This document shows, one piece after another, positions 44,918-57,486 of a stretch of DNA of 64,000 nucleotides. The notes under the pieces were generated by a model. The model was not told the DNA's origin. It saw nothing but the letters and a program-made list of their open reading frames with translations, and did not search any database. The stretch is from positions 2,144,001 through 2,208,000 of the forward strand of contig OZ245006.1 of assembly GCA_965223545.1 (NCBI GenBank), read 5' to 3'. Position numbers and translations under genes: made by a program. This DNA comes from Planctomycetota bacterium. Lineage in GTDB: Bacteria; Planctomycetota; UBA1135; UBA2386. Within the stretch, counting starts at the first letter, position 1. Every line of letters begins with the position of its first letter.

Positions 44918-45601
44918 ATGAGCTACGACCCCCGCACCATCGCCTTCATGGCCGAGGTCCTGTTCCCGCCGATCGAACTCAAGGCGCCTGCCGTGCAGGA
45001 GATCCACAACGCCCTGTTCAAGCAACCGGAGATCAGCTACCAGAACTTCCAGATCGGGCCCGACGGGATCCACCTGACCAACACGGCACAGACCCCCGGC
45101 GCGGTCTCGGCCGCCTCGTTCGCCCCCGACCGCTTGGTGATCCGCGAGGAGCTCCGCGCGACCACGGTCGAGGACTTCGCCACGCGATTGGTCAACGTCG
45201 GCAGCATCGCGTTCCGCACCCTCGGCGTGCAGGCCAGCGTCGCCCAGCAGTTCGTGGTACGCTCCCTGATCAGCCCCCGGCACACCGAGAACAGCACCGA
45301 GTTCATCGTCGGCCGGATGATCGGCGCCCCGGACGAAGCCTGGGCGCAGTTCGGACGGCCGATGCAGCGGGCCGGACTGTCGTTCACCTTCCCCCAGACC
45401 GGGGAGCATCCCCAGGTCTACAACATCCGCATCGAGACTTGGACGCAGGACCCGCGCTCGCTCTGGATCGAAAACGTCGGCAGCTTCACCGGGCAAGTCG
45501 CCGCCGAACGGCTGCCGGACCTCAGCAACTTGATGTTCTCGACCTACAAGTTCGCCACCAGCCAGGCGATGGCGTTCATCGGGCACTTCGACCGACCGTG
45601 A
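44918..45601 (+). CDS. Hypothetical cytoplasmic protein
   Basis: Strong codon bias; first gene of an overlapping 4-gene operon. Confidence 0.75.
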   Translation: MSYDPRTIAFMAEVLFPPIELKAPAVQEIHNALFKQPEISYQNFQIGPDGIHLTNTAQTPGAVSAASFAPDRLVIREELRATTVEDFATRLVNVGSIAFRTLGVQASVAQQFVVRSLISPRHTENSTEFIVGRMIGAPDEAWAQFGRPMQRAGLSFTFPQTGEHPQVYNIRIETWTQDPRSLWIENVGSFTGQVAAERLPDLSNLMFSTYKFATSQAMAFIGHFDRP

Positions 45602-46293: not shown

Positions 46294-47126
46294 TCCACCG
46301 ATGCCTCATCGCCGCTGCGCTGGCGGTCCTCGCCATCCGTGGCCCGAGCCAGGATGCCGCACCCGAGCCCCCGGCGTGGCCGGAGCTCTCGCGCCGCGAG
46401 CAGACCCAGGTCAAGCAGACGTGCGACCAGCTGCGCAAGACCGGCAAGGCCGAGCGCATCGCCGACCTCGAGCAGCGGCTGCAGCAGTTCGGCGCGGGCG
46501 CGGCGCCGCTGCTGATCGACCGGCTCAGCGACATGCGCAAGAACATCAACGCGCCGTTGCAACGCGTCTTGGAGCACCTGGTCACCGACGCCGACGCACC
46601 GCTGCTCGCGCGCCGCGCCCAGGACGACCGGCTGGCGATCCGGCGCTACGTCGTCGGCAGGCTCGAGCGCACTGGCAACCGCGACATGCTGCCGGTGTTC
46701 CGGCATGCGCTGGGCGATGACGACGACGAGGTGCGCCTCGCGGCCGTGCTCGGCATCACGCGCTGTGGCGACACCGCGGCGCTGCCGCAGCTGCTGGAGC
46801 ACTGCATCGCCGATTGGCACGCCGTGCGCGCGCGCGCCGAGCCCGCGCTGGCAGGAGTCAAGGGCCGGGCGGCCGCCGAGTGGCTCGCCACACCGTTGAG
46901 CGACGACAGTGAGCCGCGCAAGGTGGCCGCACTGCGCATGCTGCGCGTGGCCGGCGACCGGCAGTCCACCGCGCTGATCGCCCCCCTCCTCGATTCGGAG
47001 AACCACAACCTGAAGCGCGCGGCGATCAACGCGCTGCGGGGCATCGTCGATGGCGACCCGCCACTCGACAAGCTCTCGGTGTTTCAGGCGATCGAGATGG
47101 CGAAGACGTGGAAGGCGCGGTTGTGA
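46290..47126 (+). CDS. Exported HEAT-repeat protein
   Basis: Signal peptide; ALGDDDDEVRLAAV, LLDSENHNLKRAAINAL; ATGA overlap. Confidence 0.8.
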   Translation: MIHRCLIAAALAVLAIRGPSQDAAPEPPAWPELSRREQTQVKQTCDQLRKTGKAERIADLEQRLQQFGAGAAPLLIDRLSDMRKNINAPLQRVLEHLVTDADAPLLARRAQDDRLAIRRYVVGRLERTGNRDMLPVFRHALGDDDDEVRLAAVLGITRCGDTAALPQLLEHCIADWHAVRARAEPALAGVKGRAAAEWLATPLSDDSEPRKVAALRMLRVAGDRQSTALIAPLLDSENHNLKRAAINALRGIVDGDPPLDKLSVFQAIEMAKTWKARL

Positions 47127-48382
47127 TCCGGGCCGGCAGCACGTTTGCGCGGCGGCAGATGCCCGCCGTCGCAGCCGCGCTCGCCCTGGCGGCGGGCGGC
47201 TGGGCGCAGGTCAAAGAGCGACTGCCGCGCTGGCAACTCGATCCGTACACGGACAACGAGCCCGAACGCATGGCGCGGGCGGGCTACGTCTCCTACGGCC
47301 CGTTCGAGTTCGGCCAGCGTGGCACCGCGATCGCCACGACCGAGGACATCGAGGCCACCGTGCCCTATGCGCAGATCCTGTGGGTCGAGACCGCGCATTT
47401 TCGCATTGGACTCAGCTTGCGCACGTGGCCCTTGCCACAGGAGGCAAAGACCAAGAAGAAGATCCGCGCCGAGCTGACCGAGCTGCAAAAGGTGCTGCCG
47501 AAGATCAACCCGAAGACGCGCAGACTCGACCCGTGGCTGCGCCTGCACCTCACCGCCTATCGGTTGGAGAAGCTGTATCGCGAGTTCTTGGAGCTGATCG
47601 GCGTCGAGGAGAGCGAGTTTCCGACCAGCATGGACAAGGTCGTCGTCGGCCAGGGCCGCTACCTGGGCTACGGGCCGTATCTCGGCATGCGGCAGAAGTA
47701 TCTCGTCTTCGTGACCACCGAAGGCGGCACCTATCTCGACTACCAAACGGCCTTCATCGGCAAGACTTCGGCGTTCGGCCAACGCTGGCACTTCAAGGAC
47801 ATCGGCGGACTGTTCTACGGCGTGGCGACGAAGTTCGACGACAACGCGCTGAAGCACGACACAGCGCTGCACTGCGACCTGACGTTCAACGTCAGCCACC
47901 TGCTGTTGGCCGGCTTCCGCTACTACGCCTACGACCTACCAGTGTGGATCTCGGAGGGGATTGCCCACTGGTTCGAGCGACGCGTCGATCCGCGCTGGAA
48001 CACGTTCACCCTCAGCGAGGGCGGCGGTCTGCAACGCCGCAAGGAGTGGCAGTGGGAGGCGGAGACGCGCAAGCTGCTCGCCGCCGGCAAAGTGACGCCG
48101 TTTTCCGAGGTCTACACGTGGCGCAACTTCAGCGCGATCTCGTTCAACGACCACGTGCTGCTGTGGTCGCGCTGGGACTACTTGATGTCACGCGGCGTGC
48201 CCGACTTCCAGAGCTTCCTGTTCGAGGTCAAGGGCCGCGTCCGCCCGGACACCTGGTTGGCGGACCAAGACGATTTGGTTGGCGCCACGCGCCAAGCACT
48301 GCAGAAGGTCTACGGCCTCTCGCCCATCAACTTCGATGAGCACTGGCGCGAGTGGGTGCTGGCCAACTACGCGGTCAAGTGA
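47123..48382 (+). CDS. Exported hypothetical protein with gluzincin-like motif
   Basis: LPVWISEGIAHWFE preceded by FNVSH in place of HExxH; GTGA overlap. Confidence 0.65.
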   Translation: MIRAGSTFARRQMPAVAAALALAAGGWAQVKERLPRWQLDPYTDNEPERMARAGYVSYGPFEFGQRGTAIATTEDIEATVPYAQILWVETAHFRIGLSLRTWPLPQEAKTKKKIRAELTELQKVLPKINPKTRRLDPWLRLHLTAYRLEKLYREFLELIGVEESEFPTSMDKVVVGQGRYLGYGPYLGMRQKYLVFVTTEGGTYLDYQTAFIGKTSAFGQRWHFKDIGGLFYGVATKFDDNALKHDTALHCDLTFNVSHLLLAGFRYYAYDLPVWISEGIAHWFERRVDPRWNTFTLSEGGGLQRRKEWQWEAETRKLLAAGKVTPFSEVYTWRNFSAISFNDHVLLWSRWDYLMSRGVPDFQSFLFEVKGRVRPDTWLADQDDLVGATRQALQKVYGLSPINFDEHWREWVLANYAVK

Positions 48383-48395
48383 GCGCGGCCGGCGA

Positions 48396-49175
48396 TCAGC
48401 CGGCTTGCACGGAGACCGGCAACAGTCGGGCCAGCGCGCGCGTCAGCTCTTTCTGCAAGTGGTGCAGGGCGCGCGGCCGACCGGCCAACGCGCGCCACAG
48501 CCGGCGCGCCAGTCGTCGGTCACCATCGGCATAGGCGAGCAGCAGCCGCATTCGCTCCGCCCGGGTGCACGATGACCGGCGGCGCGCCGAGAACGCCATG
48601 TCGTACACGTCCACCTGCGCCAAGCGGCCACCGACGATCGAGCCGCGGCAGGCCAGCAGCACGGGCTGGTCGCACAGCCGCAACGCGCCGTTGGCGACCT
48701 CGCCCTCGACCAGCACGTTGCGCGGTTGCAACGTCGTGCTGGCCATCCCACCGCGGTGCAGCGCGCCGACGATGCTGCCGTAGCACTGCAGCAAGCGGCG
48801 CCGGCACTTGGACCGCGTGTCACCGCCCACGGCCAGCGCGCCGAGCGCGCGCTCCAGACTCGGCGCTTCGCCGAGATACTCGGTCACCAAGTAGGAGACC
48901 GCCACGCAGCCCCAGCGCCGGTGTTCGCCCCATGCGATCGGCCGGACGCAGGGCACGCCGGCCGCCCGGATCCGAGCGAGATTGGCGAACTCGCGACCGC
49001 CGCGTGAGCGCACGCCAAAGCTACGCCATCGCAGCCACCGGGGCGTGCGGTACCACTTGCGCACCACGCGTCCGTCCGGGCTGTCGATCTGCTCGACCCG
49101 CGAATCGGGGTCCTCTTGCAGCACGCGTAGAGCGAACGGCTCGCGCAACTCGAACGGTGCGGGCAAGGGACTCAT
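48396..49175 (-). CDS. Kdo/WaaP-type lipopolysaccharide kinase family protein
   Basis: VVRKWY, SRGGREFANL, YLVTEYL, LHRGG..LQPRNVL; catalytic Asp positions look altered. Confidence 0.72.
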   Translation of the reverse strand: MSPLPAPFELREPFALRVLQEDPDSRVEQIDSPDGRVVRKWYRTPRWLRWRSFGVRSRGGREFANLARIRAAGVPCVRPIAWGEHRRWGCVAVSYLVTEYLGEAPSLERALGALAVGGDTRSKCRRRLLQCYGSIVGALHRGGMASTTLQPRNVLVEGEVANGALRLCDQPVLLACRGSIVGGRLAQVDVYDMAFSARRRSSCTRAERMRLLLAYADGDRRLARRLWRALAGRPRALHHLQKELTRALARLLPVSVQAG

Positions 49176-49882
49176 GGCTGCCAGAGGACCGACCGGTAGA
49201 TCGGCAGGAGGGCGAGGAGCGAGGTCACGATCCACTGCGGCGCGTCGAGACCGAGCTCGACCGCGTCCTCTTTCGGCAGCTCTCGCACCAAGTGGAGCCA
49301 ATGCTCACCGGGTGTGTACGAACCGACGTACTCGGCCAAGTCGTGCGGCTTCACCGACGACGCCCAGTACACCTTGCGCCAGTCGTGCAGCTTGAGCCCG
49401 AACCCGGGTGGCAGCGCGTTGAGCATCGCGCACCACTCGTGGCGGCCCGCATCGTCGGCGAGCCGCTTCTTCAAGTGCTCGCCATCCCACCACGCCAGCG
49501 GGTGGATGCGGAACGCCGCCTCCACGACCTGGTCGTCCAGCGAGACCTCGAGCACCGGCTGGATGTAGTGGGTCTCGGCATCCTTGCCCAGCGCCTCGCC
49601 GAAGAACGCCGCCAACTTCTTTCGTTCGGCGGGATTGCGGCAGAGGTAGGCGCGTTGCTCGCGAACGCGAAAGCTGTTGAATACGTACGGGTGGTGGAGG
49701 CCCGCCTGGCTCGAGAGCTCGACCTTGGCCTCGGTCTTGGCCCTCTTCTTGACGGCGTCGGCGATCTTCTTCAGCTTGCGACGCACCGACAGACGCAGCG
49801 CGTTGTACTCCGGGTCCCTCTGCCGGTGTTTCTCGTAGGCGAGGAAGTCGCGCACGAGAAACGGCTCGAGGTCGGCTGCCAT
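49172..49882 (-). CDS. Hypothetical protein
   Basis: Good codon bias; ATGA overlap with the kinase gene. Confidence 0.7.
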   Translation of the reverse strand: MAADLEPFLVRDFLAYEKHRQRDPEYNALRLSVRRKLKKIADAVKKRAKTEAKVELSSQAGLHHPYVFNSFRVREQRAYLCRNPAERKKLAAFFGEALGKDAETHYIQPVLEVSLDDQVVEAAFRIHPLAWWDGEHLKKRLADDAGRHEWCAMLNALPPGFGLKLHDWRKVYWASSVKPHDLAEYVGSYTPGEHWLHLVRELPKEDAVELGLDAPQWIVTSLLALLPIYRSVLWQP

Positions 49883-49970
49883 GCGCGAACGATACCGCGG
49901 CGCACGCCGCACGCCAGCAAACGCCGAAACCATCTCGGGACGCGTGCGGCCTGCCGTTATCATCGCTTGC

Positions 49971-50792
49971 GTGATCACTCGGCAGGTGGCGTTGCTCCTG
50001 CCGCTCGCCTCGCTGTGCGCGGGGTGCAGCGGACTGCCCGGCCTGGATGCGCCACAGGTCGAGCTGATCCCCAAGCTCGCGATCCTGCGCGTGAAGGGAG
50101 ACGCGGCGATGCAGTCGACCACCACCGGTGGCGCGGTGCGCTCGAATGCGCGCATCGGTCTGTCCGAGCTGGGGGTCGATGACCGCGACGAGGACGTCGG
50201 CGGCACGATCGCGATGGGCGACGGTTTTTCGGGGTTCGAAATCGACTACCAGCGACTCGACCAGAAGTCCTCGCGCACCGGCACCCTGGGCGCCGCCTTC
50301 GGCGCCATCGAGGCGGGCGACGTGGTGCAGACCAAGGTCTTCATGGACGAGTTCCGGCTGCGCTACACCGCCGGCATCGTCGACTGGGAGCCAGTCGACG
50401 GGGCGAGGCTCCGCGCCGGCCCCGCGGTGGCGCTCACCCACCGCGAGATCGAGTTCCAGACCATCGAACAGACTCTGGCCCGGGCGCAGACGCTCGAGAT
50501 CAAGGACGACGGCGTGGCCTACATCGGCGCGCGCGCGCGCCTCGACGTCGGCCCCCTCGGCTTCCAGATCGACTGGGGGGTCAGCCCGGACTGGACCTTC
50601 GGCGGCGATTTTCGCGGCACCATGCACGATCTGGAGGCCACCGTGGCCTACCGGTTCGCGGACCACGACGTGACCGCGTTCGGCGGCTACCGGCGCAGTG
50701 AGCTGGAGGCGGAGGGCTACCGCGACGACCGGCGCTTCGACGCCGACCTGCTGATCGACGGCTACGTCTTCGGTCTGCGGCTGTCGTTCTAA
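49971..50792 (+). CDS. Probable outer-membrane beta-barrel (lipo)protein
   Basis: LCAGC lipobox-like; alternating beta strands; C-terminal GYVFGLRLSF. Confidence 0.72.
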   Translation: MITRQVALLLPLASLCAGCSGLPGLDAPQVELIPKLAILRVKGDAAMQSTTTGGAVRSNARIGLSELGVDDRDEDVGGTIAMGDGFSGFEIDYQRLDQKSSRTGTLGAAFGAIEAGDVVQTKVFMDEFRLRYTAGIVDWEPVDGARLRAGPAVALTHREIEFQTIEQTLARAQTLEIKDDGVAYIGARARLDVGPLGFQIDWGVSPDWTFGGDFRGTMHDLEATVAYRFADHDVTAFGGYRRSELEAEGYRDDRRFDADLLIDGYVFGLRLSF

Positions 50793-55183: not shown

Positions 55184-55999
55184 CTAGTCGCTGTCGGCGC
55201 CCTCCAGGACGATCTTGAGAACGTCCAGCTGGCGGCAATCGCAGGCGACGCCGAGGAGGTCCGCCAGCGCGGGCCGGGTGCGGCCGCCGTCCCCGCTGAT
55301 CCACTCCTTAACGTAGGTGCCGTGCGCGCAGCGCACGTCGATCTGCAGGGCGCCACTGTCGAGAACCGCGACGCCGACGATCTCGACGCGGCGTTCCCGA
55401 TCGAGATCGGCGCGCCGGTGGGCCACCCGCTGGGGCGTCCGCTGGCTGATGTCCAGGGCTTGCCCGATCAGCTCTTGGGCGGCGGTGGGGTCGACGGCGG
55501 CACCGAGCTCGACCTCGGCGCGGTAGACCTTGTCGAAGCGAGATTCCTTCCAATACGCCACCCGGGCGCGCGGCACACGCACGAACGGTGCCAGCTGGAT
55601 GCGGTCGCCGTCCCGCTCGTGGATGCGCCGGCGCAGCTCCTCCAGGTCGACCTCGAGAGCACGCGCACCGACCACCTCGAAGACGAACGGCCGCCCATCG
55701 CCGAGCATGCGCACGTCGATGTCCTCGCGGCCGGCGCCGTGGAATTTGCCGTCGCGGGCGCGGAATGCGGGCAACGCCTGGCGCCCGATCAGCTCCTGCA
55801 CGGATTCGTCGGTGAGCTTGCCCCGGCCCCCGCACCGCGCGCATCCCTGCCGGCGCCGCCGGTGCCCCTTGCACTCGGGACAGTAGAAGATCGTCTGCGG
55901 CAGCCCGCGCACCAGCTTCTGGTAGGCGGACTCGAGATAGATCGACACCTTGGGCCGCGGTCGGTGCCCGACCGGCCGCGTCTGCTGCTCGGCACTCAC
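55184..55999 (-). CDS. Pus10-type tRNA pseudouridine synthase, catalytic domain only
   Basis: YQKLVRGLPQT, CxxC..CxxC, FHGAGREDIDVRMLGDGRPF, QRTPQRVAHRRAD, GTYVKEWISGDGGRTRP. Confidence 0.88.
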   Translation of the reverse strand: MSAEQQTRPVGHRPRPKVSIYLESAYQKLVRGLPQTIFYCPECKGHRRRRQGCARCGGRGKLTDESVQELIGRQALPAFRARDGKFHGAGREDIDVRMLGDGRPFVFEVVGARALEVDLEELRRRIHERDGDRIQLAPFVRVPRARVAYWKESRFDKVYRAEVELGAAVDPTAAQELIGQALDISQRTPQRVAHRRADLDRERRVEIVGVAVLDSGALQIDVRCAHGTYVKEWISGDGGRTRPALADLLGVACDCRQLDVLKIVLEGADSD

Positions 56000-56076
56000 G
56001 CCGCCAGGCTATTCCCGGCGGGCGCAGGCCGCAAACCGCGGTTCTCGGGCCGCCCCACGGCCGGCGGAGGGCCGGC

Positions 56077-56460
56077 TCAGCGACGCGCCGGCTCTTCCTT
56101 GCGACGGGAGTGCAACCGACTCACCAGCCGGAAGAAGTCGGTCACATCGAGCGGCGTATGGAGGAAGGAGCCGATGTTGAGCCGAGACTTCTCACCCGCC
56201 AGATCCCGGGCCTGGCGCTCCTCGGTGACGACGACCACGTCGGTGTGCTTGTCGAAGGTGCGCAGGTGCTCGAGCAGCCGCAGGCCATCCCGGTTGCGCG
56301 GGTCGATGGCCAAGAACACGCAGTCGTATTGGTGCTGGCGCACCTCGTTGATCGATGCGTATCCTTCGCCGACGGTGATGTTGAACTCGGGGAACTGCTG
56401 TAGGCCGACCTTGATCTGGTCGCGCACCAGGTTGTCCCGAACGACGAGCAGGATGTCCAT
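56077..56460 (-). CDS. Stand-alone atypical (pseudo-)receiver domain protein
   Basis: REC fold pattern (YDCVFL..DGLRLL..VVVVT..FLHTP) lacking the phospho-Asp and conserved Lys. Confidence 0.75.
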   Translation of the reverse strand: MDILLVVRDNLVRDQIKVGLQQFPEFNITVGEGYASINEVRQHQYDCVFLAIDPRNRDGLRLLEHLRTFDKHTDVVVVTEERQARDLAGEKSRLNIGSFLHTPLDVTDFFRLVSRLHSRRKEEPARR

Positions 56461-56538: not shown

Positions 56539-57486
56539 TTGAACTGGCTCGCCGGAGTCGACGAGGCCGGACTCGGGCCGATCCTGGGCCCGCTGGTCGT
56601 CGGCGGCGTGGCGATGGCCGGCCCCGCCGGGGTCGACCCGTGGCGGGCGCTGCGGACGACGGTCTGCCGGCACAAGGCCGAGAAGGACAAGATCCGGGTC
56701 GCCGACAGCAAGAAGGTCAACCAGGGCCCACACGGCCTGCTGCGCCTGGAGCAGACGGTGCTGACGTTCCTCGGCGCGATGCAGGGGGCCCCACCCGCCA
56801 CCGTCGCGGACTTGTTGTCCGGGCTTGGCGTGGACGTCGCCCCACTGCGCCAATGCCCTTGGTATCGGGACTTGTCCCAGCCACTCCCGCTGCGGGACGC
56901 AGCAGACACCCTGGAGCTGCGCGCCCACAACCTGGCCCGCAGCATGGCGCGCCGCGACCTGCGCGTCGGCCACCTTGTCGCCGCGGTGATCGACGCCAAG
57001 GAGTTCAACGATCTCATCGCCGAGACGGACAACAAGAGCCGGACTCACTTCGCCGCCTACTCCCGCGTGCTCGGCACCCTGCTCGACGTGCTGCCGGCGG
57101 GCGCGCACCTGGTGGCCGACCGGTGCGGCGGCATCACCCACTACGTGCCCGCCCTGCGGCGAGGCCTGGGCCGCGTCCGGCTGCGCACGGTCGAGGAGAG
57201 CGCCGGTCAGTCTCGATATGAGATCGGCGCCGATGCCGATCCGGTGCGCGTGACGTTTGCGGTGCAGGGTGAGGACCGCTCCTTCCCCACCGCGCTGGCG
57301 AGCTGTGTGGCGAAGTACGTCCGCGAGCTGCTGATGCATCTGCTCAACCGCTGGTTCCAGGAGCGCGTGCCCGACCTTGCCCCGACCGCCGGCTATTACT
57401 CCGACGGGCACCGATTCGTGCGCGCGATCCAGCCGGTCCTCGCGCACGGGGAATTCCCGGAAGAGCTGCTGATTCGCTGTCGCTGA
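56539..57486 (+). CDS. rnhB: Ribonuclease HII
   Basis: AGVDEAGLGPILGPLVV, VADSKK, ALASCVAKYVRE, GYYSD. Confidence 0.85.
   Translation: MNWLAGVDEAGLGPILGPLVVGGVAMAGPAGVDPWRALRTTVCRHKAEKDKIRVADSKKVNQGPHGLLRLEQTVLTFLGAMQGAPPATVADLLSGLGVDVAPLRQCPWYRDLSQPLPLRDAADTLELRAHNLARSMARRDLRVGHLVAAVIDAKEFNDLIAETDNKSRTHFAAYSRVLGTLLDVLPAGAHLVADRCGGITHYVPALRRGLGRVRLRTVEESAGQSRYEIGADADPVRVTFAVQGEDRSFPTALASCVAKYVRELLMHLLNRWFQERVPDLAPTAGYYSDGHRFVRAIQPVLAHGEFPEELLIRCR

Follow-up and report, generated by a model that had tools for sequence, protein, structure and literature searches.

The window analyzed here (64,000 nucleotides of contig OZ245006.1 from a Planctomycetota bacterium) carries on its minus strand, at 55184..55999, a 271-aa reading frame with a GTG start and no internal stop, which encodes the catalytic domain, and only that domain, of the pseudouridine synthase Pus10. 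A sequence-only reading had picked out this frame by a set of Pus10 motifs, and every one of them was found in the protein (GREDIDVR at residue 90, GRPF at 102, QRTPQRVAHRR at 186, GTYVKE at 227, SGDGGRTRP at 235, and CxxC-x9-CxxC at 40-56). The profile search proposed in that reading agrees with the assignment: TIGR01213 (Pus10), the sole NCBIfam family matched, scored 264 bits, above its cut-off of 200 (E 2.1e-78), and Pus10_C (PF21238), the sole Pfam family at E<=0.01, scored 190 bits against a cut-off of 27 (E 4.7e-56). A sequence search of PDB gave human PUS10 (2v9k) as the one significant match (E 2e-29). The AlphaFold model of the 271-aa protein (pLDDT 95.8) is also closest in fold to this structure (E 1.8e-23, TMq 0.80, rmsd 2.3 A), with much weaker matches to TruA (TMq 0.50-0.53) and to TruB structures (TMq 0.36-0.41). 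No Pfam or NCBIfam model of the TruB, TruA, RluA/RsuA or TruD families matched the frame, and a planctomycete TruB profile gave E 0.3, so that profiles, PDB match and fold all point to Pus10 rather than to a TruB, TruD or RluA affiliation. The codon usage is host-like, as had been suggested (GC3 0.896; CAI-like index 0.71, compared to 0.65-0.79 in nine of ten other genes of the window and 0.49 in the tenth, whose start is a guess). The alignment to TIGR01213 spans profile positions 160-401 of 402, leaving positions 1-159 uncovered. The protein is therefore a variant, rather than a canonical member, of the family, as the N-terminal THUMP region is absent.

The active-site residues are all intact. 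Their equivalence to residues of the Methanocaldococcus jannaschii enzyme (MjPus10) was assigned by motif position, with definitions and roles of the core residues taken from the accessible part of PMC3753934. The motif H87-GAG-R91-E-D93-I-D95 (55715..55741, minus strand) aligns with GREDVD of human PUS10, and its D93 is the catalytic Asp, matched by position to MjPus10 D275. Y159 (55523..55525, minus strand), placed by motif position and by alignment with the Methanothermococcus protein, is the predicted equivalent of MjPus10 Y339, which is required for psi54 (PMC3753934). The thumb loop QRTPQRVAHRR (55412..55444, minus strand) provides H194/R195 for MjPus10 H376/R377; V230/K231 of GTYVKE (55304..55321, minus strand) correspond to I412/K413, a motif that forms a salt bridge to the catalytic Asp (PMC3753934), and L258 (55226..55228, minus strand) corresponds to L440. 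Among 149 locus-derived sequences (some genomes are in duplicate, and 19 copies are THUMP-bearing and stem from other classes) residues R91, D93, Y159, K231, L258, P189, R191 and R196 are invariant and position 230 is always V or I, while H87 (148/149), R195 (146/149), D95 (144/149) and H194 (131/149) are less strict. In five relatives (L008, L012, L021, L028 and L140) the second conserved Asp (MjPus10 D277) is replaced by Asn, giving GREDVN.

The Cys-rich segment C40xxC43-KGHRRRRQG-C53xxC56 (55832..55882, minus strand), originally described as an insert, is present but turned out to be the ordinary forefinger loop, as described for Pus10 by Joardar et al. 2013 (PMC3753934). A novel insert was dismissed, as the same four Cys are invariant in 112/112 aligned full-length Pus10s and occur also in Methanothermococcus Pus10; they probably form a Zn site. 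Only the longer basic linker between the Cys pairs is unusual: nine residues here and in 73/80 close loci, compared to four in 137 of the 147 THUMP-bearing Pus10s that fit the pattern (257 examined).

As claimed in the sequence-only reading, there is no room upstream for a THUMP-containing domain: an in-frame TAG stands 4 codons 5' of the GTG, and the end of the upstream gene is 77 nt away. The same TAG begins the hexamer TAGCCT (56006..56011, minus strand), the -10-like element of the gene's own that had been pointed out, located 6 nt before the GTG. This layout is enriched in related THUMP-less loci. A TANNNT hexamer 6-9 nt 5' of a candidate start was found in 25/123 such loci (each giving 0-8 candidate starts, with starts lying 77-119 residues ahead of the catalytic Asp; GenBank loci, being top matches, were taken to come from the host's order), compared to 31/7262 random start-like codons of the host genome (0.4%). 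The spacing supports the GTG start and a predicted leaderless layout.

The missing part was not found elsewhere either. Three Pus10 N-terminal profiles had no match in the six frames of the host genome (best E 0.08), nor in the upstream frames of relatives (103 with best E 1.5 and another 20 with best E 1.8), which speaks against THUMP being encoded by a second gene anywhere in the genome. The N-terminal profile is sensitive, as the one built from 19 planctomycete N-termini matched 60/60 long N-termini at E<1e-3. The THUMP-region families PF22023 and PF02926 had no match in the 271-aa protein. Two THUMP genes that are present in the genome look like RlmL-type methyltransferases.

Upstream of pus10 on the same strand lies a stand-alone response-regulator receiver protein (56077..56460, minus; PF00072), followed by a divergent gene for an RNase HII-like protein (56539..57486, plus; PF01351, 35.8 bits). 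The two occur within 5 kb of pus10 in 72/80 and 73/80 related loci, respectively, while ABC genes near pus10 recur in only 1/80. Gene order points to co-occurrence of these conserved neighbors with pus10, and we would read nothing further into it. The receiver-domain gene stays upstream in 72/80 loci although pus10 seems to own a -10. The RNase HII-like protein (315 aa) stays far short of every NCBIfam RNase HII cut-off (37 bits against 167), and the respective profiles are shorter than the protein (188-251 positions). Four other frames of the window, of 227-424 aa (47108-48382 and 49881-50792, plus; 49172-50206, minus; 44918-45601, plus), had no Pfam match at E<=0.01.

That related records are metagenome-assembled, and that roughly one third of the TIGR01213 profile has no counterpart in the protein, could raise the suspicion of a chimeric assembly, of contaminating archaeal DNA or of the remnant of a decaying gene. 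We consider such an artefact to have a negligible chance of being true. The gene sits on an 8.07-Mb contig with host-like GC content and codon use; the same neighbors flank it at 72-73 of 80 related loci, which excludes the chimera envisaged as a caveat in the sequence-only reading; it is present in 106/106 genera of the host's class with no stop inside the listed matches, and its relatives are equally short.

The host (8.1 Mb, 2 contigs, 91% complete) was compared with 201 genomes of its class, all from one order and spread over ten families. The best 80 related loci are mostly from Planctomycetota or from a family within this phylum, with one from CL500-15 and a few unlabelled or from other taxa; no cultured carrier is named among the matches listed (120 related rows). 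Pus10_C was detected in 200/201 genomes of the class (106/106 genera), with 4/4 archaea and 0/10 bacteria as controls. TruB is the usual bacterial enzyme for psi55, a near-universal tRNA modification. TruB_N was found in 3 of the same 201 genomes, and in 14/14 control genomes. One of these three matches comes from a contig of 1379 bases, possibly a contaminant. The other two are divergent copies in a single genus (g80), with Pus10 kept alongside. This TruB-like gene (SHGGALD, ~100 bits; L113:1123-2196 and L114:1159-2259) may have been acquired later and act on a different target. The search for truB in the host, suggested at the outset, found none with Pfam, nor with a profile based on 25 TruBs of planctomycete genomes (best E 0.3), while the same genome does contain TruA and seven RluA/RsuA-type genes. 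In the host truB is also absent next to rbfA, an observation that we discarded as evidence, since rbfA is within ~2.5 kb of truB in 0/22 TruB-bearing planctomycetes.

A cross-count of Pus10 and TruB results over 301 genomes of the phylum (>=90% complete) gave 48 with Pus10, 160 with TruB, one with both (G433) and 94 with neither. Outside the host's order Pus10 is found in 19 genomes from ten families, 18 of them without TruB. Genomes with neither enzyme (e.g. 23 in family f35, 7/8 in f19 and 3/3 in f32) show that truB loss is common in the phylum without Pus10, and the observed exclusion thus partly reflects shared ancestry; in these planctomycetes psi55 may be absent or made by another enzyme. 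One genome of the class (G172, 94% complete) has neither pus10 nor a detectable TruB, both flanking genes being intact, and so pus10 proved dispensable at least once. At this locus (L169:1-1080) pus10 is cleanly missing after the receiver-domain gene, while the congener G182 (L170) keeps it. The family f77 includes a TruB-only genome (G345, L158), a Pus10-only genome (G367, L151) and the one with both genes (G433, L152 and L153), and may thus show a displacement under way.

Taken together, we assign a probability of about 0.75 to the reading that this stand-alone minimal Pus10 makes tRNA psi55 instead of TruB, the substrate and the position 55 being what we infer from gene distribution and homology. 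The replacement of TruB, raised as a possibility in the sequence-only reading, is thereby supported by the distribution of the two genes (TruB in 3/201 class genomes). In the proposed scenario the gene would have entered before the class diversified, probably from an archaeal donor of the Diapherotrites/Micrarchaeota type, whose Pus10 is short (310-370 aa); what was left of the N-terminal THUMP region would then have been lost, and the gene fixed while truB disappeared. By homology, the thumb and the Zn-forefinger loops would grip the T-arm of tRNA, the target U would flip into a pocket formed by R91, Y159, V230 and L258, and D93, paired with K231, would isomerise it. In truB strains of E. coli archaeal Pus10s yield psi55, and MjPus10 modifies an isolated 17-mer T-arm (both PMC3753934), so that THUMP may be dispensable for the reaction. 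On the substrate side, 45/45 CCA-ending tRNA genes of the host carry GTTCRA (64 ARAGORN calls). One of the calls (number 28, G000:C1 2326454-2326528) is well-formed and CCA-ending with a short anticodon loop, ARAGORN remaining undecided between Arg and Pro.

A different function was also considered, in which the enzyme has moved to another RNA (rRNA, tmRNA or other T-loop RNA) or acts mainly as a tRNA chaperone, truB having been lost separately with no psi55 made. Such a possibility is suggested by the 94/301 phylum genomes that live with neither enzyme, by the disappearance of THUMP, a module that binds the tRNA 3' end, and by the fitness benefit of E. coli TruB being credited to its chaperone activity (PMC11214086, as far as its accessible text goes). 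On the other hand, a chaperone-only role is at odds with the strict conservation of the catalytic set. As for another RNA target, the THUMP-bearing Pus10s of the ten other families likewise exclude TruB in 18/19 genomes, the combinations seen in f77 are those expected for interchangeable enzymes, and MjPus10 is active on the T-arm in isolation (PMC3753934). We therefore hold a shifted function to be distinctly improbable compared to tRNA psi55 synthesis in place of TruB.

The origin of the gene was addressed by three trees (FastTree with 197 rows, a quick IQ-TREE with 98 rows and a careful IQ-TREE with 56 rows and 248 columns), as proposed in the sequence-only reading. In all three the THUMP-less proteins form one clade (100/100 in the careful IQ-TREE), set apart from the Pus10 copies of other planctomycetes. 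Both IQ-TREE analyses join this clade to short proteins of ~310-370 aa (SH-aLRT 95 in the quick one, 100/99 in the careful one). Of the 15 sister rows in the careful tree, six have a named source: four Ca. Diapherotrites, one Ca. ainarchaeum and one Micrarchaeota; of 20 representative proteins looked up, 3 had an organism label. The trees are unrooted, subsampled and without eukaryotes, the bootstrap had not settled (0.923) and several sister rows are skewed in composition. The sequence-only reading had offered either an old transfer from archaea or an unrecognised bacterial clade, and the two merge into one story, with the gene present in 200/201 genomes of the class and with archaeal-labelled nearest relatives in the tree. 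The distribution points to an archaeal source of the class Pus10, with a DPANN-type donor likely.

The ten other planctomycete families that have Pus10 encode proteins of ~330-370 aa with an N-terminal part of 85-105 residues homologous to the archaeal THUMP region; among 11 related representatives, six gave PF22023 or PF02926 matches, all of them below the cut-off. These copies (L119-L122, L129, L131, L133, L139 and L142-L152) are scattered across the tree, which suggests further archaeal transfers. An alternative would be a single ancient acquisition in early Planctomycetota with subsequent losses and a deletion of THUMP in the host's class. It would account for the THUMP-like N-termini in those ten families, and the AU test of one planctomycete Pus10 clade (a constraint on 22 planctomycete rows and three unlabelled neighbors) was non-significant (p 0.12), which is why we do not take separate origins as proven. 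However, the constraint costs 45 log-units, all three trees keep the THUMP-less clade apart, and its grouping with archaeal-labelled proteins has IQ-TREE support of 95 and 100/99; a single acquisition thus seems to us rather doubtful, with perhaps a minority chance, and transfer from a DPANN-type archaeon into the class remains our preferred account.

Compared to archaeal Pus10 (TIGR01213, COG1258), which makes both psi54 and psi55 in M. jannaschii and psi55 only in P. furiosus, the planctomycete protein shares the catalytic domain with GREDxD, the Cys forefinger, the thumb HRR and the full set of seven core residues, with 38% identity over 259 aa to Pus10 of Methanothermococcus okinawensis. 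It differs by the absence of the N-terminal Zn/THUMP region, by the linker of nine basic residues instead of four, by the bacterial host (Planctomycetota records, bacterial neighbor genes) and by the lack of a TrmY partner. The short Diapherotrites/Iainarchaeota and Micrarchaeota Pus10s (310-370 aa) give the top full-length scores with the query (40-46% identity) but still carry a compact THUMP region (PF22023, 30 bits in P0130) that the bacterial clade is without. Human PUS10 (2v9k) is covered only over the C-terminal part of its 530-aa chain, its large accessory domain being absent here. TruB shares the pseudouridine-synthase fold and probably the same product, psi55, but belongs to a different family, with HxGxLD in place of GREDxD. 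The THUMP-bearing planctomycete Pus10 excludes TruB in the same way while keeping its THUMP-like part and branching elsewhere in the tree.

The premise that Pus10 is regarded as an archaeal and eukaryotic enzyme holds in recent reviews: it is stated to be absent from bacteria in the accessible parts of PMC7912444 (2021), PMC9957541 (2023) and PMC12710931 (2025). The literature searched, with most subscription papers outside the search, contained no description of a bacterial Pus10 and no paper testing a THUMP-less one, so that a prior characterization of this type, envisaged in the sequence-only reading, did not surface. A phrase in PMC11214086 ("some archaea and diverse bacteria ... TrmFO and Pus10") was examined and set aside, as in its accessible context it pairs enzymes with modifications rather than reporting a bacterial Pus10. 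Some of these proteins are already annotated, as NCBI and JGI pipelines label them Pus10. Should our reading hold, one of the most highly conserved tRNA modifications would depend on an enzyme of archaeal type throughout a bacterial class, which would be a clear instance of non-orthologous displacement between domains. The size series from 420-450 aa in archaea through ~340 aa in DPANN and other planctomycetes to 270 aa in this clade would provide a direct test of the THUMP contribution. The small mesophilic catalytic core would also suit structure work; no RNA-bound Pus10 structure exists according to the 2025 review (PMC12710931). Cultured OM190/Saltatorellota strains have been described (Poly30, DSM 103386, and Pla133, DSM 103766; bioRxiv 10.1101/817700), which may belong to this class and may carry the gene.

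The status of position 54 bears on whether the enzyme may do more than replace TruB. The check for trmA and trmFO proposed in the sequence-only reading found the host without TrmFO (just a 66-bit cross-match of MnmG) and without a TrmA-level match; the latter was obtained in 0/121 phylum genomes at E<=1e-30, seven of these from the host's order. TrmY is likewise missing from the host and was retrieved from 0/121 class genomes, which eliminates it as a partner for m1-psi54. The host has one presumed RlmD-like gene. RlmD-like enzymes produce m5U54 in Thermococcales (PMC3753934). Within the class TrmFO is present in 32/201 genomes, namely in all 28 of family f3, in 4/6 of f5 and in none of the remaining eight families (f1 0/49, f2 0/106 and f4 0/4 among them). 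The forefinger linker was compared with this distribution: in the sequences read it has 9-10 residues and is basic in the TrmFO-less families f1 (5/5), f2 (30/30) and f4 (4/4), and 4-5 residues in the TrmFO-bearing f3 (20/20). The pattern is broken by the TrmFO-less f8 with four residues (2/2), by f6, f7, f9 and f10 with six, and by the THUMP-bearing f52 with ten. A loss of psi54 residues in the TrmFO-bearing families, as in Pyrococcus, was not seen: the Cys forefinger and the thumb HR are retained in both f3 and f5. As MjPus10 overrides TrmA in E. coli (PMC3753934) while TrmFO is kept in f3 (28/28), the Pus10 of this family fits a psi55-only enzyme.

An extension of psi55 synthesis, rather than a replacement for it, would be a dual psi54 and psi55 synthase in the lineages devoid of a U54 methylase, the host included, whose T-loops would then be archaeal-like; the Arg/Lys-rich forefinger linker would substitute for the basic surface lost with THUMP. 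It is consistent with the retention of all psi54 markers that PMC3753934 defines in the catalytic domain (the Cys forefinger, R91, Y159, L258, H194/R195 and the His six positions ahead of the catalytic Asp, H87), with the lack of TrmFO, a TrmA-level match and TrmY in the host, and with the long basic linker in the large TrmFO-less families f1, f2 and f4 as opposed to the short one in f3. On the other hand, the association of linker and TrmFO is imperfect (f8, f6, f7, f9, f10 and f52) and amounts to about two independent contrasts; basic residues of THUMP, tied to psi54 and not to psi55, count for psi54 along with the Cys (PMC12710931, accessible part); and the RlmD-like gene is present, while U54 may also remain unmodified. 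We regard a dual activity as tentative and on balance unlikely. Its fullest version, in which one DPANN-derived THUMP-less Pus10 of ~270 aa replaced both TruB and the U54 methylase in the TrmFO-less families, with a newly evolved Arg-rich forefinger standing in for THUMP in RNA binding, appears to us slightly less probable again. If true, tRNAs of these families would bear psi54-psi55 in place of T54-psi55, an archaeal T-loop chemistry at the scale of the class. Families with and without TrmFO offer a built-in test of what determines psi54 as opposed to psi55.
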